Shown: positions 9,679 to 52,970, counted from the first letter of the stretch. The stretch is 64,000 nt of DNA from Gammaproteobacteria bacterium RIFCSPHIGHO2_02_FULL_42_43 (GCA_001801425.1 MGXR01000002.1:11606-75605); one strand, 5' to 3'. The notes: generated from the letters alone by a model not told the origin. Program-made: numbers and translations.

Positions 9679-10300
9679 CACCCCAAATATATTTATGTAA
9701 TTGTATTTGAAAACGCACAGGTAATTGATCTTGCAAAATCCATTCTGCTAATATTTTTTTGTCGAGCTGATCAGCGCTCGGTGAAAATAAAATTTCGCAA
9801 CAATGTTGTAATTGATATTCTGCGATTATTTTTTTTGACCAGTCGTAATCAGCACGATCACAAATCACGAATTTAATTTGATCTTGCTTGGATAAAAAAT
9901 TAAAATTGGAAAAAATATTTTTGGACATTTCATTGGAGCCTGGTGTTTTAATATCAAGAATTTTAATCACACGCGCATCAACATCAGAAATATCGATAGC
10001 ACCACTCGTTTCCAGGGTAACACAATGCTGCAAATCACATAATTTTTTCAGCAAGGCCAAGCAATTTTTTTGCGCCAAGGGTTCGCCGCCAGTAACGGTT
10101 ACATACTTGGTTTTATAATTTGAAACAGTGGTGATGACATCATCAATGGAGATATTGTTTCCGCCAGAAAATGCATAAGCGGTGTCGCAATAGGTGCAAC
10201 GCAACGGGCAACCGGTCAGTCGAATGAAGACGGTTGGTAATCCTGAATAAGTGGTTTCTCCTTGTAATGAAAAAAAAATCTCAGTGATTCTTAGATTCAC
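9662..10300 (-). CDS. queE: 7-carboxy-7-deazaguanine synthase (radical SAM)
   Basis: [36 protein letters not shown] matches the QueE N-terminus and CxxxCxxC cluster. GTG start. Confidence 0.85.
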
Positions 10301-10435
10301 TCGCTACCGCTCGTGTCTGTGTCCTGATTTATTTTTACTCGCCGCCGCTCGTGTCTGTGTCCTGATTTATTTGCACTCGCCGCCGCTCTGTCTGTGTCCT
10401 GATTTTTTGGACATAGACACGAGCGGTAGCGAGTG
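10298..10435. repeat. REP-like family 1 array (3 direct copies plus 1 inverted copy)
   Basis: CACTCGCTACCGCTCGTGTCTGTGTCCTGAT occurs at 10298, with variants at 10337 and 10374. Its reverse complement GGACATAGACACGAGCGGTAGCGAGTG is at 10409-10435. The same unit recurs at 31989 and 52908. Confidence 0.85.
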
Positions 10436-11921: not shown

Positions 11922-11968
11922 TGTGATCCACTCCTGAAAAAATTACAACGAGCGATCATAAAATAAAA

Positions 11969-12084
11969 GAAGCGCGAGCGCAAGCGACCGCAAAATGGAA
12001 GCGCGAGCGCAAGCGACCGCAAAATGGAAGCGCGAGCGCAAGCGACCGCAAAATGGAAGCGCGAGCGCGAGCGACCGCAAAATT
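11969..12084. repeat. 29-bp tandem repeat x4
   Basis: GAAGCGCGAGCGCAAGCGACCGCAAAATG repeats at 11969, 11998, 12027 and 12056 (last copy variant). It lies between the stop of the propeller gene and the porin start. Confidence 0.9.
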
Positions 12085-12088
12085 TATT

Positions 12089-13663
12089 TCACGGAAATTG
12101 TTCTTGCCATGCTGATTCAGGTTGTATCGCAGCACCCAGCGCAGAAACACCGTTCAACTTAACATTTAATGGATTTGAAATAGTTACCCAGGCACTTCCA
12201 TTCCAATGTAATGTCGTGCCACTAGCACCAACCGCCCAACAACTGTCTGTTTTACTACAGCTGACGCCATATAAATTGACATTTCCCGACGCTGTAACTC
12301 GTGACCAAGCACTGCCATTCCAATGCACAGTGACAGAAGCGCCACTCGCCCTATTACCTACGGCCCAACAATCATTATTATTGATGCAAGTAACACCATT
12401 ATAATTTACATTCGGCAAGCCCGTCGTGGATTGCGCAACCCACGCAGTATTATTCCATCGAATAAAAGCGCGATCATCGCCAACTGCCCAACAATTAGTG
12501 CTTGCGGTACACCACACACTATTGAGATGTTTAACAGGTGATGGTGTTGAGAGATTGCGCGTCCAATTAATTCCATCCCAATGCACCATCAAGTCATTGC
12601 CTATTGCATTGCCAACCGCCCAACAATCTGTCGTGCTATTACAATAAACACTATTGTAACTAACGTTGGGTAATGTCGACACAGTGCTGGTTTGCTCAGT
12701 CCAGTTGCTGCCATTCCATACATTAAAAGATCTGGCGCCTCCAACTGCCCAACAATAATTATTCGCAACACAATGCACACCAAAATAGTTCGAGCTATCG
12801 CCAGAAGAAACTGCCGACCAACTATTCCCGTTCCAATGCAAAAATAATCCCGATTCCCCAACAGCCCATGCATCCGCATAAGACAAAGCAAAAACAGCGT
12901 TCATGCTTCTGTTGAGTGATGACACATTCGAATCACTCCACTGCAATTCAGTAGGCTTATTCCAATGCAAAACATGAACATCATTGGAAACAGCATTGCC
13001 CACCGCCCACGCTTCCGGTAATTGCACCGCTGCTTGTATCGTACTTCCACCCCCGCCAATCACACTTCCTGCAGGTGACAAAGTTGGCACGCCACCTTGC
13101 GATTGCAGCATGCATTGATATTGTCCGACTGCCGCACCGCTTGCATGCGCAACTGCGGTAGTTCCACCTGCGCCGCGCGTCACATTCACAAAATTATTTC
13201 CACTGATAGTCACATAATCAATTAATTCTCTGTCGATCATGACGCGACCGGTGGTTGCATAAGCCGCAGCACTCGCCACTGGAATCGTGGTTGTCGACGC
13301 AGTAATCGCGGTACTCAATGTGCTGGGCGTTGCGGGTGATTGCGGACCCGCACCCGTTACAGTAAATGGGCCTGCAGCACCAGTGAAAGTAAAATTCGTT
13401 AAATTGACATTGCTGGTAACGTCAGTGCAAGCGATGCGACTCGCAATAGTGGGAATCATTAATTGGTGCGTGCCACTTTCTAATCCCGCTTCAGCAATAT
13501 ATAACGCTTTTTGTCCGCCCAGTTGGTTGGTCGTGCTTAGCATATCGCTGTTAACCACATACGTAATAAAAACGCCGATGATAGCGAAAATCATGATTAA
13601 CACGATTGCGACGATGATGAGAAAACCGTGTTGTGATTGTTTTAGTTTTAGTTTCATTTGCAC
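12089..13663 (-). CDS. PilX_N-type pilus protein fused to a 7-8 bladed beta-propeller (candidate pilus tip adhesin)
   Basis: The N-terminus GFLIIVAIVLIMIFAIIGVFITYVVNSDMLSTTNQLGGQKALYIAEAGLESG resembles the PilX N-terminal domain. The C-terminal half has at least 7 repeats of the type (C/A)WAVG....(L)HWNG..W. Confidence 0.7.
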   Translation of the reverse strand: MQMKLKLKQSQHGFLIIVAIVLIMIFAIIGVFITYVVNSDMLSTTNQLGGQKALYIAEAGLESGTHQLMIPTIASRIACTDVTSNVNLTNFTFTGAAGPFTVTGAGPQSPATPSTLSTAITASTTTIPVASAAAYATTGRVMIDRELIDYVTISGNNFVNVTRGAGGTTAVAHASGAAVGQYQCMLQSQGGVPTLSPAGSVIGGGGSTIQAAVQLPEAWAVGNAVSNDVHVLHWNKPTELQWSDSNVSSLNRSMNAVFALSYADAWAVGESGLFLHWNGNSWSAVSSGDSSNYFGVHCVANNYCWAVGGARSFNVWNGSNWTEQTSTVSTLPNVSYNSVYCNSTTDCWAVGNAIGNDLMVHWDGINWTRNLSTPSPVKHLNSVWCTASTNCWAVGDDRAFIRWNNTAWVAQSTTGLPNVNYNGVTCINNNDCWAVGNRASGASVTVHWNGSAWSRVTASGNVNLYGVSCSKTDSCWAVGASGTTLHWNGSAWVTISNPLNVKLNGVSALGAAIQPESAWQEQFP

Positions 13664-13741
13664 TTGCTCCGCTTCGCTACGCGCGTGCTTCTGCGGTCTT
13701 TATTCGCACTTGCTCCGCTTCGCTACGCGCGTGCTTCTGTG
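13659..13741. repeat. REP-like family 2, two direct copies
   Basis: GCACTTGCTCCGCTTCGCTACGCGCGTGCTTCTG(C/T)GGT occurs at 13659 and 13704. A diverged copy is at about 24824. Confidence 0.8.
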
Positions 13742-13745
13742 GTTT

Positions 13746-14219
13746 TTAAATGATATTTCTCAAATTAATCACCGTTCCCAATGTAGTGTTTGTATTATTT
13801 TGCGTGATCGTGAATATCACAGAGATATATCTGATGTTCGCGATCACCGCAGTGACAGCACCCGTGTCATCGTAATAACCAAAAGTAACTGAGGCAACAC
13901 CGTTAGCCAAGGTCAGCGCGTTGCGTTGTAACTGCGTGCCACTCAATGTGTAACTCACGCTCGTATTCGTATTATCGTTGAAAGTAAATTGCGTGCTGGT
14001 TGCAGTGGTGATGTTGCTCGTCGATGGTACATTGCGAAAATCAGATTCTATTCGTGTCAACGCCAATCTTCCTTGCCAATTATTATCCGTCAAATTACGT
14101 TGCAAAAAATAACTGTTAAATCCCGCGTGAATCATGGGTAAAGCAATCACCGCTAATACCGCCAAAATCACAGTGACAATAATAATTTCGATTAATGTAA
14201 AACCGCGATATTTTTTCAT
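13746..14219 (-). CDS. type IV minor pilin (prepilin-type N-terminal cleavage/methylation domain)
   Basis: MKKYRG/FTLIEIIIVTVILAVLAVIALP leader and hydrophobic helix. Confidence 0.75.
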   Translation of the reverse strand: MKKYRGFTLIEIIIVTVILAVLAVIALPMIHAGFNSYFLQRNLTDNNWQGRLALTRIESDFRNVPSTSNITTATSTQFTFNDNTNTSVSYTLSGTQLQRNALTLANGVASVTFGYYDDTGAVTAVIANIRYISVIFTITQNNTNTTLGTVINLRNII

Positions 14220-14617
14220 TAATATAACGCCACCACTGTTTTTAAATCTGCTCTAGAATTTTGCGGGCCCGTCACGATAACATTAATTATTCGATAATTA
14301 GAATCACTGCCGATCGCATAAGGGGTAAGAGTCGACGTGATGGTGTAGCCTGTGATTGCTGAAAGCGCCGTACACACTGCAGGTGAACCACTGACGCATG
14401 GATCGGTTAACCCTGTAAATCCATTCATTCGACGCGAACCAATAATAATATCCATGCGCGCACTCGCTAATGCAATAGCTGTTGTTTGTGGATTCACGCT
14501 CGATGTTTTTTGTAATGTTGTATTAAATGCAATAAACACACTCGTCACCACGAAACCAATAATCACAATAAAAATCACAAGTTCAATCAATGTAAATCCC
14601 ACATTATTTTTTTTCAT
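14219..14617 (-). CDS. type IV minor pilin
   Basis: MKKNNVG/FTLIELVIFIVIIGFVV. The track ORF start at 14656 lies inside the MITE-like element, so the internal ATG at 14617 is preferred. Confidence 0.75.
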   Translation of the reverse strand: MKKNNVGFTLIELVIFIVIIGFVVTSVFIAFNTTLQKTSSVNPQTTAIALASARMDIIIGSRRMNGFTGLTDPCVSGSPAVCTALSAITGYTITSTLTPYAIGSDSNYRIINVIVTGPQNSRADLKTVVALY

Positions 14618-14631
14618 TGCACGCTCAGCTT

Positions 14632-14792
14632 TTCCCGCTTTCAAAAGAATTTTCATCTTTGGGTGATATTGAATGATAATTTGCCTCGAAAATGCTCATT
14701 GACTAACGTGTCAACTCCGCTTTTCTCACCAAATTATCATTCAATCTCACCTCAAATCTGAAAATTTAAGTTAATCAACCTTCAGAGCGGAA
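14632..14792 (-). mobile_element. ~162-bp palindromic MITE-like element, copy A
   Basis: The reverse complement aligns along its length with copies at 18983-19145 and 37733-37894. Long inverted arms (AATTTTCAGATTTGAGGTGAGATTGAATGATAATTT / AAATTATCATTCAATATCACCCAAAGATGAAAATT). Confidence 0.75.
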
Positions 14793-15272
14793 CTACTGTT
14801 GCACGCTCATGTTTCCCGTTTGTTGCGTGATTGTAATCGTACGGCTAAGGTCATCGCGCGTCACGGTGATGGTGGCGTTAGCAGTAAGCGCTGTGGTAGC
14901 AGCGTTGTCGGAATACGGAATACCACGCTCATCAAAAGCAACCAAGTTATTCGGTAAATTCGATAAACCGGAAATAGTGATGCCCGAAACCAAGGTAATG
15001 GTGTTGGTGTTGGTGGAGGGATTGGGTACGGCAGTGCCGCTGATGTTGGTGATGCCATACGTGCTTGGTAATGTAAAATTCACACGAAAACGCTGCCCGT
15101 GTGTGACGGCAAGCATTTGCGTGTAACGCAAATCCCCGAGAATTTGCTGTGTTTGCGCATCTAAATTTGGGGACGTAATAAAACGCGGCACAGCCAATGC
15201 AGCAATGATACTGATCAATATGATGACCAGCACAAGCTCAATCAGGGTAAATCCATTTTGTTTTTTGTTCAT
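14793..15272 (-). CDS. type IV minor pilin
   Basis: MNKKQNG/FTLIELVLVIILISIIAALAVPRF. Confidence 0.75.
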   Translation of the reverse strand: MNKKQNGFTLIELVLVIILISIIAALAVPRFITSPNLDAQTQQILGDLRYTQMLAVTHGQRFRVNFTLPSTYGITNISGTAVPNPSTNTNTITLVSGITISGLSNLPNNLVAFDERGIPYSDNAATTALTANATITVTRDDLSRTITITQQTGNMSVQQ

Positions 15273-17448: not shown

Positions 17449-18372
17449 ATGCAAATCAATCTCGATTTTTTAAAAAAAAAGTCACCGCCTGGATTATGTT
17501 GCTTATATCTTTTGCCAGATCGGCTAATTGTGACACATGCTTTGTTTGATAATGAAAGACCCAAAATCACTTTTTACGAAGATACACCGATTGAATTAAA
17601 TTCATTTTCCTACACTCTGGATAGGATAATTAAAAAGCACGCGTTGAATGGCATGCCTTGTTCCTGGGTATTGCACGACAGTTTTTATCAAATATTTTTG
17701 CTCGATCCACCTTCGGTTCCCGCAGAAGAAATTCCGCTCGCTTTGCGCTGGCAGCTGAAAGAGTTGATTGATTTTCCAACGGATGAAGCGGCGATTCAAT
17801 ATTTTTCAGTGCCGTTTACACTCAATAACCAACAAAAAATTTACGTGTCTATCGCAAAAAAAGAACGCATACAACCCATTGCAGATATTATTTATAACAG
17901 TGCGCTGGATTTGCAATACATTGATATCGGTGAATTGGCATTACGCAATATCACCGCATTATATGAAGAAGCGGATCACGCTTATTTGGGTTTTCTGGCC
18001 TTCAATGAAAGCAACATTGAGCTTATGATCACGCGCGAAAAAAATCTGTTGCTCAAGCGAAAACTCGAAACACCTTCATTTGTACACACGCCCATCCTCT
18101 CTCAAAAATTACTAACCGCCTTGTCGGCAGAAATTCAAAATTCATTTTCTTATTGTAAAGGTCAGGAACAACACGAAGAACTGCCCGTCAAACTATTGGT
18201 GTCTTCACCCATGCCTGATTTTTTAGCAATGTTTAGTCAGTATGATAATATTCCGGCGGAGCCTTTGCATATTCGACAAAAAATTGATTTTGAATTTATT
18301 ATACCTTCCGATAATTTTTTACCATATGATTTTTTAATTCCCATCGGTGGCGCATTACGTAGGAACAATTAA
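17449..18372 (+). CDS. MshI/PilM-like pilus assembly protein
   Basis: Assigned by position after the MshH-like gene, size (~307 aa), cytoplasmic character and ATGA-type coupling with the next gene. ATG at 17449 preferred over the track's TTG. Confidence 0.55.
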   Translation: MQINLDFLKKKSPPGLCCLYLLPDRLIVTHALFDNERPKITFYEDTPIELNSFSYTLDRIIKKHALNGMPCSWVLHDSFYQIFLLDPPSVPAEEIPLALRWQLKELIDFPTDEAAIQYFSVPFTLNNQQKIYVSIAKKERIQPIADIIYNSALDLQYIDIGELALRNITALYEEADHAYLGFLAFNESNIELMITREKNLLLKRKLETPSFVHTPILSQKLLTALSAEIQNSFSYCKGQEQHEELPVKLLVSSPMPDFLAMFSQYDNIPAEPLHIRQKIDFEFIIPSDNFLPYDFLIPIGGALRRNN

Positions 18373-19001
18373 TGCAAAAAATTAATTTTTGTGATGCGCT
18401 AGCAAAACCGGGTCGTTACGCAATTGATCAGCAACGCTTAATATGGATTGTCAGCGGATGGACTGCATTGTTAATGGTAATTTTTGCACTGCAAGTTTTT
18501 TTTGGTATATTTCAATATATTCAAGTTTCTTATGTATCCCATCAGGAGAGCAATATTTCTGCGCGTTTAAAAAAATTAATTGAGGAAAATCCAAAAATAA
18601 ATTATGTGCGCGAATTAGAAAAATCAGTGATTGCGTCCATGAATAAAGTGGACAAACAGAAAAATTTTATTGAAAAAATGACTGAATTCAAAACGCAACA
18701 ATTACAATTCAAACCCAGTGATTATTTATATGAATTGTCTAACGCTGCAATACCGCAAGTATGGCTGACGCACATGGAATTTTCTAGCCAAGGCCAGCAA
18801 GTGGATTTATCCGGCTTCACTTACAGCTCGTCGAAATTAGCGCAATACGTGACGCGTTTACAAAATGAACCACATTTCAAAGATAAAGTGTTTTCAAAAA
18901 TATCTGTCAACGAAGCAAAGTCTGAAAACAAAAAACAAATTCCTTTTAATTTGAGCACACAGAAAAAAGAAAATAACAGTGGTTCTCGCTCTGCAGGTTG
19001 A
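18372..19001 (+). CDS. PilN-like (MshI C-terminal half-like) bitopic assembly protein
   Basis: Short cytoplasmic N-terminus, single TM (LIWIVSGWTALLMVIFALQVFFGIF), periplasmic coiled region. The last 6 codons and the stop lie within MITE copy B. Confidence 0.5.
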   Translation: MQKINFCDALAKPGRYAIDQQRLIWIVSGWTALLMVIFALQVFFGIFQYIQVSYVSHQESNISARLKKLIEENPKINYVRELEKSVIASMNKVDKQKNFIEKMTEFKTQQLQFKPSDYLYELSNAAIPQVWLTHMEFSSQGQQVDLSGFTYSSSKLAQYVTRLQNEPHFKDKVFSKISVNEAKSENKKQIPFNLSTQKKENNSGSRSAG

Positions 19002-19145
19002 TTGACTTAAATTTTCAGACTTGAGGTGAGATTGAATGATAATTTGGTGAGAAAAGCGGAGTTGACACGGAAGTCTTTGAGCATTTTCGAATCAAATTAT
19101 CGTTCAATATCGCCCAAAGATGAAAATTTTTTTGAAAACGGGAGG
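18983..19145 (+). mobile_element. ~162-bp palindromic MITE-like element, copy B
   Basis: Same sequence family as 14632-14792 (rc) and 37733-37894. Confidence 0.75.
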
Positions 19146-19155
19146 GCTTGGAAAA

Positions 19156-19761
19156 ATGGGTGATTTTTTAAAACAAGCATTGCATTTATTCAGACAATAT
19201 CCCGCACGTTTGCGATTTTGGATAACTGTGGCGCTCATGATGTTGATTTTTTTAATTTGGTATTTTTTGTTTTATCGCACGATCTCACCCATCATTCAAT
19301 CCAATTCTGAAAAAATTAATGTAATACAACACAATATTGCCGCCATGAATGCGCTTTACCAAGAAAATTTGCGCGTGATCAATTCACCCATCAGTACACT
19401 GGAACAGAAAAAACGTGATTTAGAAAAAATGTTACATGAGTTAGAAACCAACACGTTTATCACCAAGAAAATGATGGACACGAAAGAAGATTATCGCAAC
19501 GCGATTCGTGACATTTCAACATTGCCAGAGGCCATCAGCTTTAATCAAATCGATGAACTGCCCAATGCCGACAGCGAAAAAATTTCCATCGAATTTTCGG
19601 GCGGTTATTTTGAAACGCTAGAGTATCTGCAATATTTAGAAAATCTACCCTGGTATATTTTATTTAACAGTCTTGAGTACACGGTAACGAGCTACCCGAA
19701 CGCTAAAGTGACATTGATCATGAGCCTGCCCCACACACCCAAAGGTGCTTCCCATGGCTAA
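19156..19761 (+). CDS. MshJ/PilO-like bitopic assembly protein
   Basis: MGDFLKQ start with GGAGGG upstream, TM (FWITVALMMLIFLIWYFLFY), coiled-coil. Assigned by position between the MshI-like and MshK/L genes. Confidence 0.5.
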   Translation: MGDFLKQALHLFRQYPARLRFWITVALMMLIFLIWYFLFYRTISPIIQSNSEKINVIQHNIAAMNALYQENLRVINSPISTLEQKKRDLEKMLHELETNTFITKKMMDTKEDYRNAIRDISTLPEAISFNQIDELPNADSEKISIEFSGGYFETLEYLQYLENLPWYILFNSLEYTVTSYPNAKVTLIMSLPHTPKGASHG

Positions 19762-24819: not shown

Positions 24820-24863
24820 GCACGCACTTGCTCCACAATGCTTACGCATTGTTCCGCGCGTGC
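24820..24863. terminator. hairpin between convergent mshG and mshE (diverged REP family 2 copy)
   Basis: ACAATGC-TTAC-GCATTGT (24835-24852) is flanked by GCACGC...GCGTGC. Confidence 0.45.
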
Positions 24864-24901
24864 TTCTGAGGTGTTGTGACTGTCCACTCACACTCTCACC
24901 A

Positions 24902-26596
24902 TCACGCAATAAATCCTTCGTTAATCACGCGCATCGTCTCAGCCACAGTTGTCACACCTTCAACCGTCAATCGATACGCATCATTCACTAATTTTTTATT
25001 GATCAATGCTTTTGTTGCAAGTTTATGAAATGTATTTTGATCATTCACTCGCAATGCTTCCGACATCGCATCATCTAATTCTAATAATTCAAAAATTGCG
25101 GAACGACCGCTGAAACCAGTATTCGCGCACAACGAGCAACCGCGACCTGATTTAAATTGAATATGTTCATACGGTAAATTTAATTTAGATAGCCATACTT
25201 TTTCATGCTCATCTAACGTGTGATCTCGAATGCAATTGCGACAAATTAATCCCATCAAACGTTGCGCTAAAATCGCTTGCATGGTTGCAGCAATCATGTA
25301 AGGCTCAACACCCAAATCAATTAACCGATAAATGGTGCTGACCGTGTCATTGGTATGCAAAGTGGATAACACCAAGCGACCCGTTAATGCAGTACGCATT
25401 GCGATCGAACTTGTTTCGCCATCGCGCATTTCACCGAGCAGAATCACATCGGGATCGTGGCGCAAAATACCGCGCAACACATTTGAAAAATCCAGTCCAA
25501 TTTTTTCGTTGATTTGAATTTGCGTCGCCCACGGCAAAAAATATTCGATAGGATCTTCAATGGTAATAATTTTAATTTCGGGGCGATTAATTTCGTTTAA
25601 CGCTGCATATAGCGTCGTCGTTTTACCCACACTGGTTGGCCCTGTCACCAAAATAATGCCGTTGGCCTTATGAAATAATTTTTGCATGCGCGTTAACACA
25701 GCGCCCGTCATGCCTGTGTCAGAAAGTTGTGTGCGTTTTTGTGTGTGCGGCAACAAACGCATCACGACGGATTCGCCAAACGGCGTCGGCATGGTTGATA
25801 ACCGAATCACAAACTTTTTTTCAAATAACGTAATTTCAAAACGACCATCTTGCGGAAAACGTTTTTCCGAAATATTTAATTCAGACATCAATTTTAATCG
25901 AGACACAATGGCTGGCATAATGCGCGATTCATTCACCACTTGCTCATGTAGAATTCCATCGACGCGCAAGCGAATGCGAATAGTGGTTTCGGTCGGCTCG
26001 ATATGAATGTCAGATGCATTCATTTGAATGGCATCTCTGAAAATTGTGTTTAATAAATCGATGACGGGTGCGTCCACTTTGTCTTCGGTTTGTGGCAACA
26101 CGTCGATATCTTTTTTCATTTCTTGCGACAATGAACGCGCATAACCGCTGATCGCTTCGCTTTGACGATAAACCAAACTAAATGTTTTTATTAAATCTTG
26201 CTCGCGCATGAGCGCAAAAAATAATGGTTTTTTTAGATAGGTGCGCAACTTATCCACGGCAGCAATATCCATGGGATCCGACATACCCACCAAATAACCA
26301 TTGCTGTCTTCTTTGAGTAAAATGGCGCGGCAAGTCTGCGCGTAAAATGCCGGCAATCGCCGCGCAAACACGGGATCCACATCGTGTTGCTTAAGATCGT
26401 AAAATGGAATATTGAGATATTGTGCAAAGCGTTCTAAAAATTGTTGCTCAGAAATAATATTGAGATCAACGAGCGCTTGACCAATCTTCACGCCCGTCTT
26501 TTTTTTTCGTTGAACGGCTAACTCCAATTGCTCAGCGCTGACAACGCCTTGCTTGAGTAACCAATCTTTAAACCGCATCCCTGGTGTTGTTGCCAT
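24902..26596 (-). CDS. mshE: GspE/PilB-family secretion ATPase with MshEN-type N-terminal domain
   Basis: Walker A GPTSVGKTT, Walker B-region ILLGEMRD, tetracysteine CRNC...CSLC. The N-terminus RFKDWLLKQGVVSAEQLELAVQ / KIGQALVDLNIISEQQFLERFAQ matches the two-fold MshEN motif. Confidence 0.9.
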   Translation of the reverse strand: MATTPGMRFKDWLLKQGVVSAEQLELAVQRKKKTGVKIGQALVDLNIISEQQFLERFAQYLNIPFYDLKQHDVDPVFARRLPAFYAQTCRAILLKEDSNGYLVGMSDPMDIAAVDKLRTYLKKPLFFALMREQDLIKTFSLVYRQSEAISGYARSLSQEMKKDIDVLPQTEDKVDAPVIDLLNTIFRDAIQMNASDIHIEPTETTIRIRLRVDGILHEQVVNESRIMPAIVSRLKLMSELNISEKRFPQDGRFEITLFEKKFVIRLSTMPTPFGESVVMRLLPHTQKRTQLSDTGMTGAVLTRMQKLFHKANGIILVTGPTSVGKTTTLYAALNEINRPEIKIITIEDPIEYFLPWATQIQINEKIGLDFSNVLRGILRHDPDVILLGEMRDGETSSIAMRTALTGRLVLSTLHTNDTVSTIYRLIDLGVEPYMIAATMQAILAQRLMGLICRNCIRDHTLDEHEKVWLSKLNLPYEHIQFKSGRGCSLCANTGFSGRSAIFELLELDDAMSEALRVNDQNTFHKLATKALINKKLVNDAYRLTVEGVTTVAETMRVINEGFIA

Positions 26597-26597
26597 A

Positions 26598-27068
26598 TTA
26601 ACAGCCGGTTGTGATGGTTGTGATGACTATCGGAGTAATGCCTCCAGTAATGGGTCCGCCGTTGTTGATATACATCAAACTACACTGAGAAACAGGGGGC
26701 ACGAAATTATATATAGCTGCAGTCGGCGTATAAGAGACTTTAAATCCATGCAGTGTTTGCAATGCAAGACCTATTCCTTGAAAGCCTGTTGTAGGGTGCC
26801 CGATGCCCGGCAGAACCTGTATAGGCTGTCCATTCATGGTAACAACACCGCTTGCACTTGTGATTGTGTTACCTTCCGCTATATATTGCGCCTGCGCTAA
26901 CATCTGCGCACTCTCAATAGCACCCTTCAAGCCAGCCAACGCTGCAATGCGAGCACCTCTAGTTTGATCGATAAAACGAGGAACCGCAATTGCCGCTAAA
27001 ATACCAAGGATGGCAATAACAACGATCAGTTCAATGAGTGTAAAACCGAAACTCTGATTGTTAATCAT
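26598..27068 (-). CDS. type IV major pilin paralogue A1 (MshA-like)
   Basis: [36 protein letters not shown]-terminal Cys...Cys D-region. One nt separates its stop from the mshE ATG. Confidence 0.85.
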
Positions 27069-27122
27069 ACCCCCCCGTTTTACTCACTTCCTTCTGTTAA
27101 CAACATCTTAGGCGGTAAAACT

Positions 27123-27197
27123 CTAGCCGCTCAGCGTTAACACAACACCTTGCTTGAGCAACCAATCTTTAAACCGCATCCCTGGTGTTGTTGCCAT
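27123..27197 (-). pseudogene. remnant of mshE 5' end (24 codons then stop)
   Basis: It translates MATTPGMRFKDWLLKQGVVLTLSG*. The first 19 residues are identical to the MshE N-terminus. Confidence 0.85.
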
Positions 27198-27198
27198 A

Positions 27199-27669
27199 TT
27201 AACAGCCGGTTGTGATGGTTGTGATGACTATCGGAGTAATGCCTCCAGTAATGGGTCCGCCGTTGTTGATATACATCAAACTACACTGAGAAACAGGGGG
27301 CACGAAATTATATGTAGCTGCATTCGACGTATGAGTGACTTTGAATCCATGCAGTGTTTGCAATGCAAGACCTATTCCTTGAGCGCCTGTTGCAGGTTGC
27401 CCGATGCCCGGCAGAACCTGTATAGGCTGTCCATTCATGGTAACAACACCGCTTTCACTTGTGATTGTGTTACCTTCCGCTATATATTGCGCCTGCGCTA
27501 ACATCTGCGCACTCTCAATAGCACCCTTCAAACCAGCCAACGCTGCAATACGGGCACCTCTGGTTTGATCGATAAAACGAGGAACCGCAATCGCCGCTAA
27601 AATACCAAGGATGGCAATAACAACGATCAGTTCAATGAGTGTAAAACCGAAACTCTGATTGTTAATCAT
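27199..27669 (-). CDS. type IV major pilin paralogue A2
   Basis: 147/156 residues are identical to A1. The 9 substitutions are confined to residues 72-119. Confidence 0.85.
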
Positions 27670-27724
27670 ACCCCCCCCGTTTTACTAACTTCCTTCTGTT
27701 AACAACATCTCAGGCGGTAAAACC

Positions 27725-27800
27725 CTAGCCGCTCAGCGTTAACACGACGCCTTGCTTGAGTAACCAATCTTTAAACCGAATCCCTGAGATGTTGTCACCA
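27725..27800 (-). pseudogene. second, degraded remnant of mshE 5' end (no ATG)
   Basis: It reads ..GIRFKDWLLKQGVVLTLSG* on the minus strand. Confidence 0.7.
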
Positions 27801-27809
27801 GATCATTAA

Positions 27810-28250
27810 TTAACAGCCACTGGTAGTTGTTGTAACCACGCCAGCACTGTCATAAGTCAAATTACAGTCGGCAACAGTGGGTGCAAAATTATACGTGGCA
27901 ACGTTGCCCGCATAACCAACAGAAAATCCACTCAATGTTTGTATTGCAGCGCCAATTCCAGCTACAGACCCTACTGGACGTCCGTTACCTTGAACAACCG
28001 TTACAGGCTGTCCATTCATGGTGATACTCGTGGCTGTACTTGCACTTGAATTACCTTCTCCCACATATTGCACTTGCGCCAACATCACGGCACTGTTGAT
28101 AGCACCACCCAAGCCAGCCAGCGCTGCAATACGCGCATTAGTGGTTTGATTGATAAACCGAGGAACCGCAATCGCTGCCAAAATACCAAGGATGGCAATA
28201 ACAACGATCAGTTCAATGAGTGTAAAACCGCGACTCTGATTTTTAGTCAT
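27810..28250 (-). CDS. type IV major pilin paralogue A3
   Basis: [35 protein letters not shown]. The N-terminal ~60 aa are near-identical to A1/A2, the C-terminal half is diverged, and the terminal Cys pair is retained. Confidence 0.85.
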
Positions 28251-28330
28251 AAACCCCCCATCTACATAACTTCTTTAAGATTACAAGATCATTATAGTAC
28301 ATTTTAGAAATCTAGGTGCCAGCAATAAAA
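28251..28330 (-). promoter_or_regulatory. candidate promoter region of the pilin-mshE operon
   Basis: The minus strand reads TGGCACctagaTTTCT...TATAAT (TATAAT = 28291-28296), then a GGGGGG Shine-Dalgarno-like tract next to the ATG. Confidence 0.3.
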
Positions 28331-31266: not shown

Positions 31267-31985
31267 GCATTCGTGTTTTAATCAATGGCGCTGCCGGAAA
31301 AATGGGCCGCACAACGGTGGATGCGATTGCACGCGAAAAAGAATTGCGATTGGTAGCAACTGCATCGCGCTCAGATGATCTGTCTAAAATTATTCACGCT
31401 AGCAAAGCGGATGTGGTGATTGATTTTACTGTGCCTCAATGCGTATTTGAAAATACAAAAAAAATTATCGCGGCCAATGCAAGACCCGTGATCGGCACGA
31501 GCGGCCTCACGCAAGAACATATCGCGCAATTATCTCAACTGTGCCAAGAAAAAAAAATGGGTGGTATTGTGGCACCCAATTTTTCCATTGGTGCCATTTT
31601 GATGATGCGATTTGCTAAAGAAGCAGCGCAATATTTTAATGACGCAGAAATTGTTGAATGGCATCACGCACAAAAAATAGACGCGCCGTCTGCCACTGCT
31701 AAAAAAACGGCGGAGCTCATTTCCGAAAATAAAAAAATAAAAAATACAGCGTCGCGCGTAACAGCTTCAGCGCGCGGAGAAATGCATTGTGATATCCCCA
31801 TTCATTCCATTCGAATGCCGGGCGTTTTTGCCAATCAGTCCGTTATTTTTGGTAATTCCGGTGAGACACTGACCGTGCATCACCAAGCCTCGGATCGCGC
31901 AGCCATGATGCCGGGAGTGTTTTTGTGTTGCCGCAAAGTGATGACACTGGATCGAATGGTGTATGGGATGGAAACGTTGGTGTAG
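31263..31985 (+). CDS. dapB: 4-hydroxy-tetrahydrodipicolinate reductase
   Basis: [15 protein letters not shown]-binding motif, [15 protein letters not shown] active-site region, ATGA overlap with sodB. Confidence 0.85.
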
Positions 31986-31988
31986 GAT

Positions 31989-32052
31989 CACTCGCTACCG
32001 CTCGTGTCTGTGTCCCGATTGATTCACTCGCTACCACTCGTGTCTGTGTCCG
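31989..32052. repeat. REP-like family 1, two direct copies
   Basis: CACTCGCTACCGCTCGTGTCTGTGTCCCGAT and CACTCGCTACCACTCGTGTCTGTGTCCG. Confidence 0.85.
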
Positions 32053-32116
32053 TTATTTGATTTACTCACACTTTTAAGTGAAATTGATATAAAATGACCA
32101 AATGAGGTTGTGCGCG

Positions 32117-35737: not shown

Positions 35738-37750
35738 ATGGGATGGATCAAGGCCAAGTTCGCGCAATACCATGCATGGATAAGCCCCGTCATTTCAGTG
35801 CTTCGTGAGCGTGTCGGCAATGCGCTCGACTTTCTTTACCACACACTGGTTGCGATTCCCGTTCGCTTCATCAAGCAACTGATTCAAAAAATATCGCAAA
35901 AAGTGCAATCATGGCTTGCGCCAATCACGCAACATTACACGACACACATTCTCCCGATTTATACGTATTACAAAAACCAATGCAAAGAAAATACCCAGGA
36001 ATATTGGAAAGCAGTGCGAGAAATTCGCATTAAAAATAAAACCGTGGGTGATGTGGTGGATGTGGGTGTTGCAAAAATCAACGAGCATCCCTGGATTCGT
36101 CAGCTACAAGATGCATCAAAACTCGACACGCGTTTTCCGACAATGATCAGCACGCTGTTTGCCAATTTGTTAGCGATTATTTTTCCACTGTCGCTCATGC
36201 AAGTCTACGATCGCATCATTCCCAATCACACCACCAACACATTATTATTTTTAACCCTCATCGTTGTCTCTGCCATTGCGCTCGAAGCTGCTCTTCGCAT
36301 CATTCGCACTTACATTAATTTATGGGCAGACACAAAATATGAATTTTATTTGGGAAAAACTGCGTTTTCTAAAATAATGAATGCACCACTACACATCGCT
36401 GAAAACACGGATGTGGGTACGCGCTTGGAACAATTTGCAATTTTGGATCAGATGAAAGGGTTTTATAATACGCAATTGCTGACGGCCATGTACGAAGTTC
36501 CCTTTTTGCTAATCTTTGTCTTCGTCATTGCTTACATTGGCGAATGGTTATTTATCATTCCACTCATCACCATTATTTTTTCAGCTTATCTCATGTGGAA
36601 ATTCGCATTACGCTGGGAATTTTTACTCAGAGAAAAATTGACGTTCGAAGCCCGCGAAAATGATTTTATTATTAATGTGCTCACCGGAATTCACACTGCC
36701 AAATCCATCGGCATGGAAGAATTATTATTACGTCGTCATGAACGTTTGCAAGAATCGGGCATGAAAATTGATTTTTTATCCAGCATACACGACGGCGATT
36801 TACTCACCATCAAATCAACGGCGAGCCAAGGCACCATCATACTCACCGCTACATTCGGTTGCATCATGGTGGTGTATGGGCATTTGGCGATTGGGGGGCT
36901 AGCCGCTTGTATTTTATTGGCAGGTCGAATCATGCGCCCATTTGATCGCATTTTAACGACATTTAATCGCTTAAACATGATCAATTTGGTGCGCGAAAAA
37001 TTAGATGTCATTTTTCAATTGCCCTCCGAGGAAAATGTCACTACGGGCGAAACCGTGATTTTAAAAGGTGAAATTAAATTGGAAAAAATTAGTTTTCATT
37101 TTGATGATTTTAAAGAATATGAAATTCTAAAAGCACTGGATCTGCGCATTCCACCGAACACATTAGTGGGTATCTGTGGTGATGATCAAACTGAAAAAAC
37201 AACCTTGTTAAATATTTTATCCACGGTCACGAAACCAACTAGCGGACAATATTTTTTGGATGATAAAGACGTGCATCAATATCAAACTTCCGCACTGCGA
37301 AAACAAATCGCCTATTTAAAACGAACCGGAAAATTATTTCGCGGCAGCATCATGGATAATTTATCTGCATTCGATGAAAAATTAATTCCAATGGCGAGAC
37401 GCTTAGTCGATCGCCTGGGGTTAAACACGATCTTATCAAAACTGCCAAGCGGATATGACACTTTTGTCGGTGAAAAAGCAGTTGAAGCTTTGCCTGGTGG
37501 TGTCGTCAATTTGATTTTAATTATTCGAGCGCTGGTTCGAAAACCGAAAATTGTATTGTTTGATGAAACCAATATTAATCTGGATACACAGTCCAAACAA
37601 AAAATGTTGGAGTTACTACCCTATCTCAAAGAATTTTCAACCATTGTGGTATTAGTGATGCAAGAATCTACCATGAAAATTATGGATGTGATTTACCGAT
37701 TTGAAGAAGGAAAATTAGTGCGGGTAGAAAATTTCCGTCCTGAAAATTGA
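35738..37750 (+). CDS. HlyB-family T1SS ABC protein with degenerate nucleotide-binding motifs (ABC1)
   Basis: TMD begins LFANLLAIIFPLSLMQVYDRIIP. NBD: Walker A GICGDDQTEKTT (no GxGK), Q-loop Gln>Arg (YLKRTGKLF), signature LPGGV, Walker B IVLFDE, H-loop His lost (VLVMQEST). The last 5 codons lie in MITE copy C. Confidence 0.8.
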   Translation: MGWIKAKFAQYHAWISPVISVLRERVGNALDFLYHTLVAIPVRFIKQLIQKISQKVQSWLAPITQHYTTHILPIYTYYKNQCKENTQEYWKAVREIRIKNKTVGDVVDVGVAKINEHPWIRQLQDASKLDTRFPTMISTLFANLLAIIFPLSLMQVYDRIIPNHTTNTLLFLTLIVVSAIALEAALRIIRTYINLWADTKYEFYLGKTAFSKIMNAPLHIAENTDVGTRLEQFAILDQMKGFYNTQLLTAMYEVPFLLIFVFVIAYIGEWLFIIPLITIIFSAYLMWKFALRWEFLLREKLTFEARENDFIINVLTGIHTAKSIGMEELLLRRHERLQESGMKIDFLSSIHDGDLLTIKSTASQGTIILTATFGCIMVVYGHLAIGGLAACILLAGRIMRPFDRILTTFNRLNMINLVREKLDVIFQLPSEENVTTGETVILKGEIKLEKISFHFDDFKEYEILKALDLRIPPNTLVGICGDDQTEKTTLLNILSTVTKPTSGQYFLDDKDVHQYQTSALRKQIAYLKRTGKLFRGSIMDNLSAFDEKLIPMARRLVDRLGLNTILSKLPSGYDTFVGEKAVEALPGGVVNLILIIRALVRKPKIVLFDETNINLDTQSKQKMLELLPYLKEFSTIVVLVMQESTMKIMDVIYRFEEGKLVRVENFRPEN

Positions 37751-37894
37751 TTAACTTAAATTTTCAGATTTGAGGTGAGGTTGAATGATAATTTATCGAG
37801 AAAAGCGGAGTTGACACGTTAGTCAATGAGCATTTTCGAGGAAAATTATCATTCAAGATCACCCAAAGATGAAAATTTTTTTGAAAATAGGGGT
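37733..37894 (+). mobile_element. ~162-bp palindromic MITE-like element, copy C
   Basis: Same family as copies A and B. It sits between the two ABC genes. Confidence 0.75.
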
Positions 37895-37898
37895 AGGC

Positions 37899-39980
37899 AT
37901 GCGAGTTAAAACGCCATTTGAATATTGCTTGCAACCATTGCTCAAAGCGCTCAATTGGCAAGGCAATGATCGCATGTTATTCGAAAGCTTGCCGCATTTA
38001 TCCTCCATCGAATCGCTCGATAAATTTCAATGGGTGATGCAAAATCTCAATTTCGACAGTCAATCCATTGCATTGAATATCAAACGCGTTGACGAACGTT
38101 TGTTTCCTTGTTTATTTATTCCAGAAAAAAGTCATTTCCCTATTGTGCTCATTCAAAAGAATCTGGATGGCATATTGATCTATGACAGTGAAACACATGA
38201 AACTAAAACGTTGCCCGCCCTAGATAAACAGGGAACACTCATTTCATTTAAGGCAAGAATAGGGGGTGTTTCAAAAGTCAACGAACAGCATTGGTTTCGC
38301 ACTATTTTATTGAAAGAAAAAAAATTATTTTCATTTATTATTTTTTTAACATTGTTACAAACGATTTTTTTACTGGGTCCGCCAGTGTATATCATCAGCC
38401 TTTACGATAAAGTCATTGTGGCAGATTCTGGCAGCATGTTGTTTGCTTTTTTTATTGGTATTACGATTGCGGTGATTGCACTCAGCGTCACAATGAAAGC
38501 GCGAACACGATTTTTGGGATACGTGGGCACGCACATACAAAAACACGTGGGCAACGCGATCTTTAAACAATTATTGCGATTACCGCCATCCTATACTGAA
38601 AACGCCTCTGTCCCCATGCAAATTGTGCGCCTTAATGATTTTAATGTGGTGCGCACTTTCTTCAGCAGCTCTTTGTTTACAACATTGTTAGAATTTCCGT
38701 TTTTATTAATTTATTTGTTTGTAGTATGGTTGGTGGGTGGTGTGTTGGTGGTCATTCCGTTCATTGCAATTCTCATTTCATTTGTGATTTCTCTTTTTAC
38801 TTGGCGTTTTTTGCAAAAAAATATTCGCGAAAGCAGCATGAGTAAAGCAGAATACAAAGATTTTCTATTGGAATCTTTTTGGGGCATGCGATCACTGCAA
38901 TATGCCGGATTACAAGAAAAATGGATATCACGTTTTCGCGACATTAGCGCCAAATCCAGTTACTACGGAAAAAATTTACTGTTTGAAAGCCAAGTCAATG
39001 ATGTGGTATTTGATTCCATCATTATGTTATCGGGACTCGCAACATTGATTGTCGGCGCTGTGATGGTTATCAACAATCAATTGCAAGTAGGTGCGTTGGT
39101 TGGCGCGATGTTTATCATTTGGCGTGTGCTGACACCCATTCGCTCCATCAATACCATGCTTCCCAAGTTAATGCAGCTGAGATTAAGTTCGAAACAAATT
39201 AATGAACTCATGAAATTACCATCAGAATTACCAACGGAGCGGCAATGGAAAAACACGCCGCAATATATTGTGGGTGCCATTGGATTTTCACAAGTCACTT
39301 TTCGATATCCCAGCGCTGATTCACCCGCACTGAAAAATATTAATTTTGATTTGAAAGCGGGACAATGTTTGTGTGTGATAGGCCCAAGTTCTTCGGGTAA
39401 AAGTACCATGGCCAATTTGATTTTGGCTATCTATTCTCCGCAAGCGGGACAAATTTACATTGATAATCGCAACATCAAACAATATGACGTTAACGTGTTG
39501 CGAAAAAGTATTTCTTACGTGCCACAAAAAACAGAATTGTTTTATGGCACCATTGCGCAAAATATTGCGTTGTCGCAGCCACTCGCATCGCACGAGCAAA
39601 TTGTTGAAGCAGTAAAAGCAGCGGGTTTACTCAAAGAAGTGGAAGCGTTACCAGAAGGATTGAAAACACGCATTCGGTTTTACAGCGATGAAAAATTAGG
39701 GCCTGCATTTTGCCAAAAAATTAATTTAGCGCGCGCCTATTTGCGTGACGCCCCAATTTTAATTTTAGATGAGCCGACAGGCACATTAGATGACGATGGT
39801 ATTCAAGCTTTCGAAACGTTTTTAACACATTTAAAAGGTAAAAAAACGATTGTATTGTTTGGACATAATACGCGTTTTCTACCATTGGCTGATTTTGGCT
39901 TGATCCTGTACGATGGATATATTGTGACAAGTGGTGATCCCAAAACGATTATGGAAAATCTGCCGCAGGGAATTGTATGA
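37899..39980 (+). CDS. HlyB-family T1SS ABC transporter with C39-like N-terminal domain (ABC2)
   Basis: Start MRVKTPFEY (the track start at 37869 is inside the MITE). Walker A GPSSSGKST, Q-loop YVPQ, Walker B ILILDEPT, H-loop FGHNT. The signature is degenerate (LGPAF instead of LSGGQ). Confidence 0.85.
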   Translation: MRVKTPFEYCLQPLLKALNWQGNDRMLFESLPHLSSIESLDKFQWVMQNLNFDSQSIALNIKRVDERLFPCLFIPEKSHFPIVLIQKNLDGILIYDSETHETKTLPALDKQGTLISFKARIGGVSKVNEQHWFRTILLKEKKLFSFIIFLTLLQTIFLLGPPVYIISLYDKVIVADSGSMLFAFFIGITIAVIALSVTMKARTRFLGYVGTHIQKHVGNAIFKQLLRLPPSYTENASVPMQIVRLNDFNVVRTFFSSSLFTTLLEFPFLLIYLFVVWLVGGVLVVIPFIAILISFVISLFTWRFLQKNIRESSMSKAEYKDFLLESFWGMRSLQYAGLQEKWISRFRDISAKSSYYGKNLLFESQVNDVVFDSIIMLSGLATLIVGAVMVINNQLQVGALVGAMFIIWRVLTPIRSINTMLPKLMQLRLSSKQINELMKLPSELPTERQWKNTPQYIVGAIGFSQVTFRYPSADSPALKNINFDLKAGQCLCVIGPSSSGKSTMANLILAIYSPQAGQIYIDNRNIKQYDVNVLRKSISYVPQKTELFYGTIAQNIALSQPLASHEQIVEAVKAAGLLKEVEALPEGLKTRIRFYSDEKLGPAFCQKINLARAYLRDAPILILDEPTGTLDDDGIQAFETFLTHLKGKKTIVLFGHNTRFLPLADFGLILYDGYIVTSGDPKTIMENLPQGIV

Positions 39981-41403: not shown

Positions 41404-44400
41404 TTAACTAAAATCTATATAATCGACTTCTTGGAAAGTAATCGTTGTACCATCATCAATGGTGAGTGTACCGCTCGCATCAGCAGAGTTGAATGTCAAG
41501 CGCGTAATGCCACCACCTGGACTTGAACTCGTAGTACCAGTCCCACTGCTCAACGACCAAGTACCACCTTGCGCACCAACACCTTTCATATAAATACCAT
41601 CATTACCCGAACCACCAGCGCCTGTGCCACCATAGAAAGTAGTATCATTATTGTCGCCGTAAACAAAATGAAACACATCAGCACCTGCATCACCATACAC
41701 CGTATCTGTGCCACCACTCGTGGTTGAACGAAATACATCGTTACCACCATTACCGTGTATTGTGTCATCACCCGTGCCACCTAAGATAAAATCTCCATTT
41801 GCACCACCGTTCAATGTGTCATTGCCACCAAGGCCATCAATAATATTCACTTTCGTGCTATCACCATCAATCGTGTTAGCGCCCGATGTGCCTGTGCTTG
41901 TCACACTACTCGTACTGCCCAACACAAAATCACCGGCATTTAAATTTTGTGCGGTGAACCCCGTTAATTTAATCGAGAAATCGGCGGTGTTATCACCATT
42001 CGTATCTAAAGACACGATGGTGTCGTTAGTACTTTGTGCCCACCATATTTGATTGACAACACTATTAGCGCCACCTAATCCCAAAATACTAAACGGTGTG
42101 CTGATGTAAGTGCTCAAATCAATCTTATCACCTTCGGAAACACTGAAACTTCCGCTGCCACTATTAAAATCTGCAATTGAGTCGCGCGCAGATGAATCGC
42201 CGGATGAATAAGATCCATTGGCCCACGTAAAAGTATCGGCACCCGTTCCACCGGTTAACGTATCCGCACCTAATGCTATACCCGAATAAGAAAAACCGTA
42301 TTTATTCGCTATATACTGGTTAACGATATCTAAATTGCTCGCACTCAGCACAGAATCAAACAACATGATTTCATAAATATTTCCGTTGAAATAGTCGCTG
42401 GTAACGGCACCTGAATCATATTCTTGACCAATGGAAAACTTTGTAGCGCTAGTTGTTAATCCATCTGAAAAACTATTTTTCGCTGTACCATTGACATAAC
42501 CAGCAGCAGTTGTACCGTCCGCAGTAGCAATAAAACCAAACACGCCCGCATTTAAATAGTTCACATCCGATGCCACAACTGAGGTATCACCATCCTTATG
42601 AGTGATTTGGCCACTGGCATCAACAAGCCATTCTTCAGAGTTGGCGTAACTGTCGTTATTCCATGCCAACATCGTAGTTTCATCTCCACCGGGGTCTAAT
42701 GTCGGATCACCCACAAAAACAACGGTGTGTGCTGAGCGAGCAAACGTACCCAGCGCATCAGCTATCAAAAACTGTGCGTTATCACTGTTGAATGCGATAG
42801 CGGCACGCCCTATTGAACCATAAGCGAAAGTGGGTTTATTATCCGCGGTCGCTTGTGTTGCATTATTGCCTTGATCAGACAAGTCGGTCCATGTACCAAC
42901 AGCGGCACCACTCGCAACCGATGTATTATCTCCATTGACATTGCCGGCGTCTAACCACAATTTCATTCCGGAAACTGTGGAATTCGTGAACGCAATTCCA
43001 TCGGCATAAATCACGTCATTACCCGCGCCAGCAGAAATCGTATCACCACCGTATGCACCTTTTAATGTGTCCGCACCGGAGTTACCCGTTAACGTATCTG
43101 CACCCGAACTACCATTCATCGTGGTATTCACGCCCGCTACGGCAGATACTTTTCCGGCCGCACTCAATGTCACGGCACCTGTGCCGCCAATCGTTACCGT
43201 TCTTGCCGCATTAAGCGCGCTCGAATCTAAGCTGACAGTGTAAGTACTGTTATTGATACGAACGCTGTCGCTGTCCGATGTATCCACAAATGCATCTGAT
43301 AATGTGATGGTGCTGTTGCCGCCCAATTGCATAACGTCTATACCAGTTTTATCCGCCAATTCTGCAGAAGTGATGGTGGCCGCGTTGGTGAAAATCAATG
43401 TATCTGATCCAAGTCCTGCACTGAGAGTATCAGCTGCTGCAAAATTCGCATCAGATGTTGTGAAAGTATCTGCACCACCGGTGCCGGTAAATGTGTCAGT
43501 GCCACTCGTTAAAGTTAATGCAACGGGCACTGCAAAATCACCCGACACTAAATTTGTTGCAGTGAAATTTTGCAATGTAATCGCAAATTCAGCGGAAAGA
43601 TTACCATCTAAATCTACTTGAACTAATGTGTCAGCACCGCTTTGTGCCCAAATAATCGAATTCAACGTGCCATCGAAACTCGCGCCATTCCCCAAAATCG
43701 TATAAGCAGCACCTGCGCTTACATTCGTAATATCTAATTTATCGCCTTCACTTGAGTTGTAACTACCCGATCCCGTTTTAAAATCAGTGATAATATCCGT
43801 AGCGGAGCTGCCGCCTGATGTGGTTGAAGTCCACGTGAAAACATCCGCACCCGTGCCGCCCGTTACTGTATCGGCACTCGCATAAGAACCTGAAACATTA
43901 TCCGCATAAATTGTATCGGCACCTGCGCCAGCAGAAATCGTATCACCACCGGCACCACCGGTTAATATATCTACGCCAGTGCCACCCGTAATTGTATCGG
44001 CACCACTGCTGCCAGTAATTGTCGTGTTAACACCATCAACAGAAATCACTTTGCCTGCAGCACTTAATGTCACAGCACCTGTGCCACCAATCGTTGCAGT
44101 TCTTGCCACATTTAAATCACTGGTATCTAAACTTAATGTGTAAGTACCGTTATTAATTCTGACCGTATTGCTATCGGATGCATCGACAAATGCATCGCTT
44201 AATGCAATTGTGCTATTGCCACTTAATTCAATAACGTCAATACCGGTTTTATTCGCAAATTGTGCAGCGGTAACGGTTGCGGCATTGGTGAAAATTAATG
44301 TATCCGATCCTGCGCCAGCAGTAATCGTATCTGCTGCTGCAAAATTAGCGCTGGTGGTTTTAATTGTGTCTGCAGCAGAGCCCATGACAACCGCATCTGT

Positions 44401-52884: not shown

Positions 52885-52907
52885 ATCAACTCCTTCATAT
52901 TTATATT

Positions 52908-52970
52908 CACTCGCTACCGCTCGTGTCTATGTGCGATATAGTCGGACACAGACGCGACCGGTAGGGAGCG
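52908..52970. repeat. REP-like family 1, inverted pair (hairpin)
   Basis: CACTCGCTACCGCTCGTGTCTATGTGCG-ATATAGTC-GGACACAGACGCGACCGGTAGGGAGCG lies between gcvT and gcvH. Confidence 0.8.

Follow-up and report, generated by a model that had tools for sequence, protein, structure and literature searches.

By behaviour, the closest described element to the one analysed here is Chunjie, a MITE of Geobacter uraniireducens Rf4, with which we compare it by description. Published summaries describe Chunjie as A+T-rich and 178–235 bp long, with inverted repeats of ~21 bp, 9-bp direct repeats and a very stable hairpin, in a host isolated from the same Rifle site (PMC3184786, PMC10969869). ERIC elements are 127 bp long with a TA duplication. 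They lie in transcribed intergenic spacers and are co-transcribed, with orientation-dependent effects on the flanking mRNA (PMC2229807). Correia/NEMIS elements of Neisseria are co-transcribed MITEs near genes, and their paired ends are cut by RNase III (PMC10969869). REP palindromes measure 21–65 bp (PMC3184786).

We analysed a window of 64 kb (the whole stretch of DNA presented above). The repeats in this window are three copies of a ~172-base non-coding MITE, which is a genome-wide passenger in groundwater bacteria. The class is a known kind of element, and the family, previously unnamed and hosted by uncultured Gammaproteobacteria of the Rifle aquifer, is a further member of it. Like Chunjie as described, the element is A+T-rich (GC 33–38% against 43% for the window) and has 9–10 bp repeats, inverted ends and a stable hairpin. 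The host of Chunjie belongs to a different class (Deltaproteobacteria), and the Chunjie summaries make no mention of a conserved core or an orientation bias (PMC3184786, PMC10969869). With a probability of about 0.8, a non-coding MITE of ~172 bp, moved in trans by a cut-and-paste transposase and landed at three overlapping operon joints, is the best explanation of the repeats.

An nhmmer profile detected the three window copies (A, B and C) at E values of 1e-53 to 1e-57 and no fourth copy in the 64-kb window. The sequence-only reading had placed three copies here. We found them at those places with slightly wider boundaries and with pairwise identities of 88% (A/B), 88% (A/C) and 82% (B/C) over ~172 nt. 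As that reading also had it, the copies lie within operons and share one orientation relative to transcription. Each lies between co-directional genes, in sense to their transcription. The copies, their duplications and the flanking genes are as follows.

14219–14617 (−): minor pilin gene downstream of copy A; true start at 14617 (MKKNNVGFTLIEL...), not at the in-element ATG at 14656
14617–14626 (−): copy A duplication, downstream; closes on the A of the ATG that starts the downstream pilin gene
14627–14798 (−): MITE copy A, 172 bp; sense CAGTAGTTCCGCTCTGAAGG...GAAAGCGGGAAAAGCT; RNA fold −63.8 kcal/mol, z −8.4
14793–15272 (−): GspH-like minor pilin gene upstream of copy A; Pfam N_methyl and GspH
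14799–14808 (−): copy A duplication, upstream; GAGCGTGCAA in sense, identical to 14617–14626
18372–19001 (+): PilN-domain gene (MshI-like) upstream of copy B; Pfam PilN
18977–19150 (+): MITE copy B; CAGTGGTTCTCGCTCTGCAGG...GAAAACGGGAGGGCTTG; fold −57.6 kcal/mol in sense, −38.2 in antisense
19156–19761 (+): gene downstream of copy B (MshJ/PilO position); true start at 19156
35738–37750 (+): first type I secretion ABC permease/ATPase gene; NCBIfam LssB/HlyB-type
~37723–37898 (+): MITE copy C; both ends decayed; RNA fold −54.9 kcal/mol
37899–39980 (+): second type I secretion ABC permease/ATPase gene; begins 1 nt after copy C

The secretin encoded downstream of copy B is named MshL by database sources, so the pilus is of the MSHA type. 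The gene at 19156–19761 had no match in domain and family searches, and no homologues could be retrieved with its protein. The duplication of copy B has decayed (AGAAAATAA versus GGAAAAATG), and the left end of copy C now forms the final seven codons and stop of the upstream ABC gene.

Each upstream protein carries an element-derived tail of +1 (A), +8 (B) or ~+7 (C) residues. The last codon (CAG) and TAG stop of the GspH-like gene come from copy A. The last eight codons and TGA stop of the PilN-domain gene lie within copy B, and the PilN-like proteins of relatives end in ...LSTQ(E/D)xK* without this extension. The tail of the first ABC protein, ENFRPEN*, reads into copy C. On the downstream side, an ATG near the right end had been proposed to be in frame with the following gene. 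It is so in all three window copies but in only one of 14 other copies, and this is a coincidence or a local effect rather than a property of the family. Public gene calls start the genes downstream of copies A and C at this ATG (14656 and 37869; L043–L051), giving 145 aa instead of 132 (A) and 703 aa instead of 693 (C); the N-termini are thereby too long by 13 and 10 residues. The shorter start of the gene after copy A is backed by relatives and by the prepilin leader. For annotation, this means that the element produces false N-terminal extensions in downstream genes and short foreign C-termini in upstream genes.

The family was collected beyond the window by two scans. Three true matches came from scanning reference genomes with a central 18-mer of the element. 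All are in the MAG 'Gammaproteobacteria bacterium RIFCSPHIGHO2_12_FULL_36_30', at loci without relation to those of the window. A single metagenome scan added 20 loci, several of which repeated the MAG loci. After removal of duplicates, 25 distinct copies remained, three from the window and 22 from related Rifle-aquifer genomes and metagenomes. A further match (L011) was discarded as a chance similarity within a coding region. The genome of the window is likewise of Rifle-aquifer origin: proteins identical to those of the window were found on Rifle contigs from ENA and JGI, and every such contig carries the element.

Once the copies were aligned with their flanks, the ends of the element were sharp, 5′-CAGTAGTTCCCGC...GCGGGAGGAGCTG-3′, with a right end of GCGGGAG(G/A)AGCT(G/A)-3′. 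The terminal inverted repeats (CAGTAGTTCCCGCTCTGAAGG versus the reverse complement of CTTTTGAAAGCGGGAGGAGCTG) are both kept across copies. Directly outside the conserved CAG...CTG ends lie direct repeats of 9–10 bp, the sequence of which varies from copy to copy. Such target-site duplications were found in at least nine copies, including window copy A (GAGCGTGCAA); other examples are ATCATAACC, TTAACGCCA, GGCATCATT, GAGGATTAC, ATTAATGCA and GGTGTCGTTC. The element is 167–176 bp long and all of its sense frames are stopped within eight codons; it is thus non-coding and well within the ~300 bp that bound small elements of this class.

Two decay products were recognized. In L024 (13365–13413, −), a 49-bp copy consists of the left and right ends joined, with the whole internal hairpin gone, and keeps a 9-bp duplication, AGG(A/G)CTCAT, directly before a start codon. 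In L020 (4565–4650, −; the same as L035), a copy bears a nested insertion of ~83 bp in its left arm. This insertion holds a TTCGCTACGCGAATC palindrome that resembles the short GC-rich repeats of the window. No autonomous element or transposase-bearing parent with the same ends was found when 505 kb of related DNA was searched by the ends. The terminal inverted repeats, the 9–10 bp duplications, the dispersed copies, the empty sites in relatives described below and the decay products identify the element as a MITE, which the earlier term 'MITE-like' had anticipated.

Relatives at 63–72% protein identity have an empty site at all three window positions. At the copy C site, L052, L053/L054 and L055/L056 show an 11-nt overlap of the two ABC genes. 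At the copy A site, L060 and L061 have a 4-nt overlap (CAATGA) between the two pilin genes, and joining the flanks of copy A rebuilds ...GAGCGTGCAATGAAAA, exactly the CAATGA stop/start overlap of these relatives. The copy B site was reached via the MshL secretin; there, L060 and L061 have an overlap of 4 or 1 nt between the PilN-like gene and the next one.

The three insertions thus each took place exactly at the joint of operon genes that originally overlapped (stop/start overlaps of 1–11 nt). We infer mobilization in trans by a cut-and-paste transposase making 9-bp staggered cuts; judging by the end sequence and the length of the duplication, the enzyme may, as a guess, be of the IS4 or ISAs1 type. 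Three features would allow such an insertion to survive: the left end in sense stops the incoming frames within 1–8 codons, the duplicated target rebuilds the downstream start region, and the right end adds a purine-rich GGGAGGAG just upstream of that start. Both flanking genes stay intact in this way. The element would then simply be co-transcribed and, on the mRNA, form a long and nearly perfect hairpin of ~45 paired positions, which would replace direct translational coupling with a structured spacer. ERIC and Correia elements are functional analogues, being co-transcribed hairpins with orientation-dependent RNase E and RNase III effects (PMC2229807, PMC10969869). By analogy with them, the hairpin probably alters the processing or stability of the flanking cistrons via RNase III or RNase E, or as a barrier to 3′-exonucleases. 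The window thus offers a clean natural case of a mobile element inside tightly coupled operons, with neither gene destroyed at three overlapping joints. A 170-nt structured spacer in place of coupling could provide a system for studying the stoichiometry of pilus and secretion subunits.

By position only, the copies are located in intergenic spacers next to genes, with a median distance of ~10 nt from the right end to the downstream start codon. Their placement is summarized below.

Co-directional joint, sense: 13 copies
Co-directional joint, antisense: 2 copies (L027c, L029)
Divergent intergenic region: 6 copies
Convergent region: 1 copy

Without the window copies, the co-directional count is 10 in sense and 2 in antisense. 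The one-sided binomial p of 0.018 applies to an earlier tally of 12:3, made before L022 was moved to the divergent group and L019 to sense. The orientation sample as a whole is small, and the bias is not absolute. In divergent regions, there is no clear orientation bias and either end may be nearer to a start codon. The sequence-only reading had set random scatter in both orientations, leaving a plain MITE, against a bias to operons. Something of each was found: antisense, divergent and convergent copies occur, and at co-directional joints there is a sense bias.

The reading frames may provide a basis for this bias. The left end had been noted to carry stops in several frames; frames entering the element in sense do stop after 1, 7 or 8 codons, compared with 16, 44 or 12 codons in antisense. 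The right end, when in sense, puts GGGAGGAG upstream of the duplicated start region. A simple selective filter consisting of these left-end stops and the right-end GGGAGGAG fits the orientation counts.

The neighbouring genes are diverse. Other copies lie immediately upstream of genes for L9, RF1, RNase H, a thioesterase, NDK and an S49 peptidase, and further ones upstream of genes for an HlyD-type adaptor, cytidine deaminase and BamD. The gene names beside non-window copies include rplI, prfA, rnhA, ndk, bamD, cdd and gspD. Two independent copies precede GspD secretin genes in other genomes. They are located at L015 6813–6981 (−) and L027 12121–12290 (−), beside orthologous secretins of two genomes, at different distances and with different duplications, and, compared with its L015 counterpart, the L027 copy has two compensatory pair swaps and a single G.U change in one arm. 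Five full copies and a mini copy were counted on a single 200-kb contig, so three copies per 64 kb is ordinary. The proposal that the element is found only in pilus and type I secretion operons is accurate within the window but does not hold for the family, the copies of which are dispersed.

The outer inverted ends and long inner arms described earlier were confirmed. Sense folds of the window copies range from −55 to −64 kcal/mol, with z-scores between −4.9 and −8.4. In each of the 25 copies the sense fold is the more stable one; the mean is −63.2 kcal/mol compared with −52.0 kcal/mol in antisense. Among 23 copies, 98.5% of cells in 45 stem pairs are standard pairs. Compensatory double changes were found in 14 of the 45 pairs, where shuffling leads one to expect 1.9; in 500 shuffles, so high a number never arose. 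At paired positions, the derived states comprised 11 G.U and 3 A.C (p = 0.03). The fold asymmetry, the G.U excess and the compensatory changes would fit selection acting on the transcript, but could also stem from the common descent of the copies or from mutation bias. We also considered sequestration of the right-end GGAGG by the left end and rejected it, as the two ends pair in only about half of the copies in silico; for the same reason, ribosome-dependent unmasking of GGAGG is only a weak idea.

The centre of the element had been taken for a 48-nt loop. Instead, its fold consists of one more stem, an internal loop and an apical hairpin of 6 bp, and no other part of the element is as conserved. 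The core hairpins of the window copies are as follows.

14678–14726 (−): core hairpin of copy A, GAGAAAAGCGGAGTTGAC-ACGTTA-GTCAATGAGCATTTTCGA; distant-family profile E 1e-8
19050–19089 (+): core hairpin of copy B; apical stem partly broken, GTCTTT instead of GTCAAT
37800–37840 (+): core hairpin of copy C; distant-family profile match

This 40-nt core hairpin recurs with different, GC-rich, self-complementary arms in other Proteobacteria, namely Pseudomonas turukhanskensis, Pseudomonas plasmids, a Halomonas chromid, a Casimicrobiaceae MAG, Ca. Fukatsuia and a Pseudomonadota MAG. When the distant copies alone were used to make a profile, it matched every Rifle core at ~E 1e-8, and local alignment of the core between the Rifle and wider families reached a score of 69, the null maximum being 25. 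In the apical stem, GTTGAC/GTCAA alternates with GTTTAC/GTAAA by covariation, and 13 of 14 sequences retain the G.U closing pair. No match to the core was found in the E. coli genomes searched, and a literature search did not find the core sequence. Sub-families in which different arms surround this core were seen in the Rifle genomes as well (L034 1000–1122 and L037 8465–8528). The wider-family elements, 130–180 bp in length, were located as follows.

L001 608–743, 6630–6775 and 7304–7572: wider-family elements
L008 2496–2647 and 1507–1662: wider-family elements
L017 890–1033: wider-family element
L039 2449–2611: wider-family element
L040 2447–2596: wider-family element
L041 2447–2600: wider-family element
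L057 1502–1679: wider-family element
L058 1483–1639: wider-family element
L059 1464–1610: wider-family element

In L001, two of these copies stand in tandem, 128 nt apart. The wider palindromic family shares with the MITE the 40-nt core, the long hairpin architecture and a sense placement beside genes, and in L008 the outer arm is GCTCTGAAG-like, as in the MITE. Unlike the MITE, it has GC-rich arms of different sequence, extra conserved internal-loop blocks (GAAGG, CAAGGC, AACGCAG and GCGCAG) and often TA termini (L039, L040, L058) rather than 9-bp duplications.

We compared the element with the named families. ERIC, IRU and RU-1 of Enterobacteriaceae and Vibrionaceae are, like the present element, imperfect palindromes often found at gene ends. 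By eye, the order of motifs in the core resembles that of ERIC (GGAG[CU]U[UG]AC-loop-GU[AC]A[AG]UGA, with a G.U closing pair), and the wider family shares with ERIC the GAAGG, CAAG[GC], AACGCAG and CGCAG blocks and the TA termini. The MITE differs from ERIC (127 bp, TA duplication) in its 172-bp length, 9–10 bp duplications and CAG...CTG ends. Homology was not supported, as nhmmer produced no alignment to an E. coli ERIC copy and local alignment stayed at the null level against shuffles, and we therefore did not place the element in ERIC. Correia/NEMIS elements differ in their TA duplication, their inverted repeats and their central IHF site, and a Correia end was absent from the window. YPAL/RU-2, a 168-bp Yersinia element (sequence from PMC2759123), is unrelated, with local alignment at the null level. 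RAYT-associated REP/BIME was rejected on the element's 172 bp and 9–10 bp duplications.

The strongest rival to the MITE reading accepts spread as a MITE and adds that the element has been domesticated as an RNA, with its hairpin or core selected as a processing or stability signal or as a protein-binding site. RNA-level constraint is plausible, and the sense bias, the G.U asymmetry and the compensatory changes agree in being consistent with an intercistronic RNA element. The better sense fold of every copy, the derived G.U over A.C states, the 14 stem pairs with compensatory changes and the 13 sense against 2 antisense copies at co-directional junctions all speak for domestication. So do the retention of the core across distant taxa, with its conserved G.U pair and an apical GC↔UA swap, and the sense orientation of all three co-directional wider-family copies in annotated Pseudomonas plasmid loci. 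A simple selfish-element model, for its part, leaves unexplained why the core is more conserved than the ends. However, part of the asymmetry is inherited from a master copy, and mutation bias may contribute further. A broken apical stem has not prevented copy B from persisting, a copy without the entire hairpin persists, and antisense copies occur. There was also no gathering-level Rfam match in the window, and two relaxed searches returned generic long-hairpin matches far below threshold. On balance, we regard domestication as possible but doubtful.

A tentative proposal of comparable standing concerns the core itself. The core GAAAAGCGGAG-UUGAC-loop-GUCAA-UGAGCAUUUUC could represent a module of ancient origin under sequence constraint, spread across Gamma- and Betaproteobacteria and set between unrelated arms in palindromic mobile elements with differing insertion chemistries (9-bp duplications or TA termini). 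It may be related to the ERIC core, and may make the elements that carry it orientation-sensitive. It could act as an RNA motif, with its conserved G.U pair and GA/UGA internal loop, for a conserved nuclease or binding protein; alternatively, the hairpin could be needed for mobilization. If the core hairpin is functional, it would be a common and so far unexplained module behind ERIC-like repeats in many Proteobacteria.

The idea that an outward promoter or an intrinsic terminator or attenuator within the element rewires transcription of the operons is unlikely. It draws on the TTGACA in the core, on a weak sense match to TTCAGA-18-GATAAT in each copy and on a T-run after the hairpin in copies B and C. 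However, the promoter matches are at chance level (9/12; shuffles give ~2 per 800 bp), TTGACA lacks a suitably spaced −10 box, and the scans called no terminator-like site within the elements. TTGACA belongs to a stem that covaries in the wider family (TTGAC/GTCAA versus TTTAC/GTAAA), a sign that it is there to pair and not as a −35 box.

Movement as single-stranded DNA, in the manner of a REP/BIME- or IS200/IS605-type palindrome recognized at its hairpin by an HUH enzyme (RAYT/TnpA), is very improbable. A conserved core hairpin with variable arms and a strand and orientation bias are typical of such elements, and the window also holds short GC-rich repeats that look like REP. However, duplications of 9–10 bp with terminal inverted repeats are hallmarks of DDE cut-and-paste transposition, and HUH elements make no duplication; furthermore, 172 bp far exceeds the size of REP, and a GTAG-type head is absent. 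A shared cis-regulatory leader co-regulating the MSHA-type pilus and type I secretion adhesin operons, as the sequence-only reading had suggested from three like-oriented copies in those operons, is equally remote and largely refuted, even with the two GspD copies elsewhere: housekeeping genes of no relation to these systems flank most of the other copies, the window has the same density of copies as the family in general, and relatives have the same operons without the element.

Several other features of the window were recorded. Short GC-rich repeats, possibly REP-like, occur singly or in adjacent pairs and form three families (CACTCGCTACCGCTCGTGTCTGTGTCC; GCTCCGCTTCGCTACGCGCGTGCTTCTG; and a 29-nt tandem unit, GAAGCGCGAGCGCAAGCGACCGCAAAATG, present four times). 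They lie at 10294–10378, 31985–32067 and 52904–52950; 13653–13744 and 24828–24873; and 11940–12083. At 26541–28265, there are three tandem units of ~600 bp, 96% and 78% identical, each with a minus-strand ORF of 146–156 aa (26598–27068, 27199–27669 and 27810–28250). Given the MSHA locus, these ORFs may be tandem pilin paralogues. At 41404–49542 (−), a 2712-aa ORF made of long internal repeats (spacing ~900, 1600 and 2500 nt) adjoins the type I secretion genes. Its counterpart in a relative has HemolysinCabind matches, and these suggest that the product is a giant repetitive secreted adhesin.
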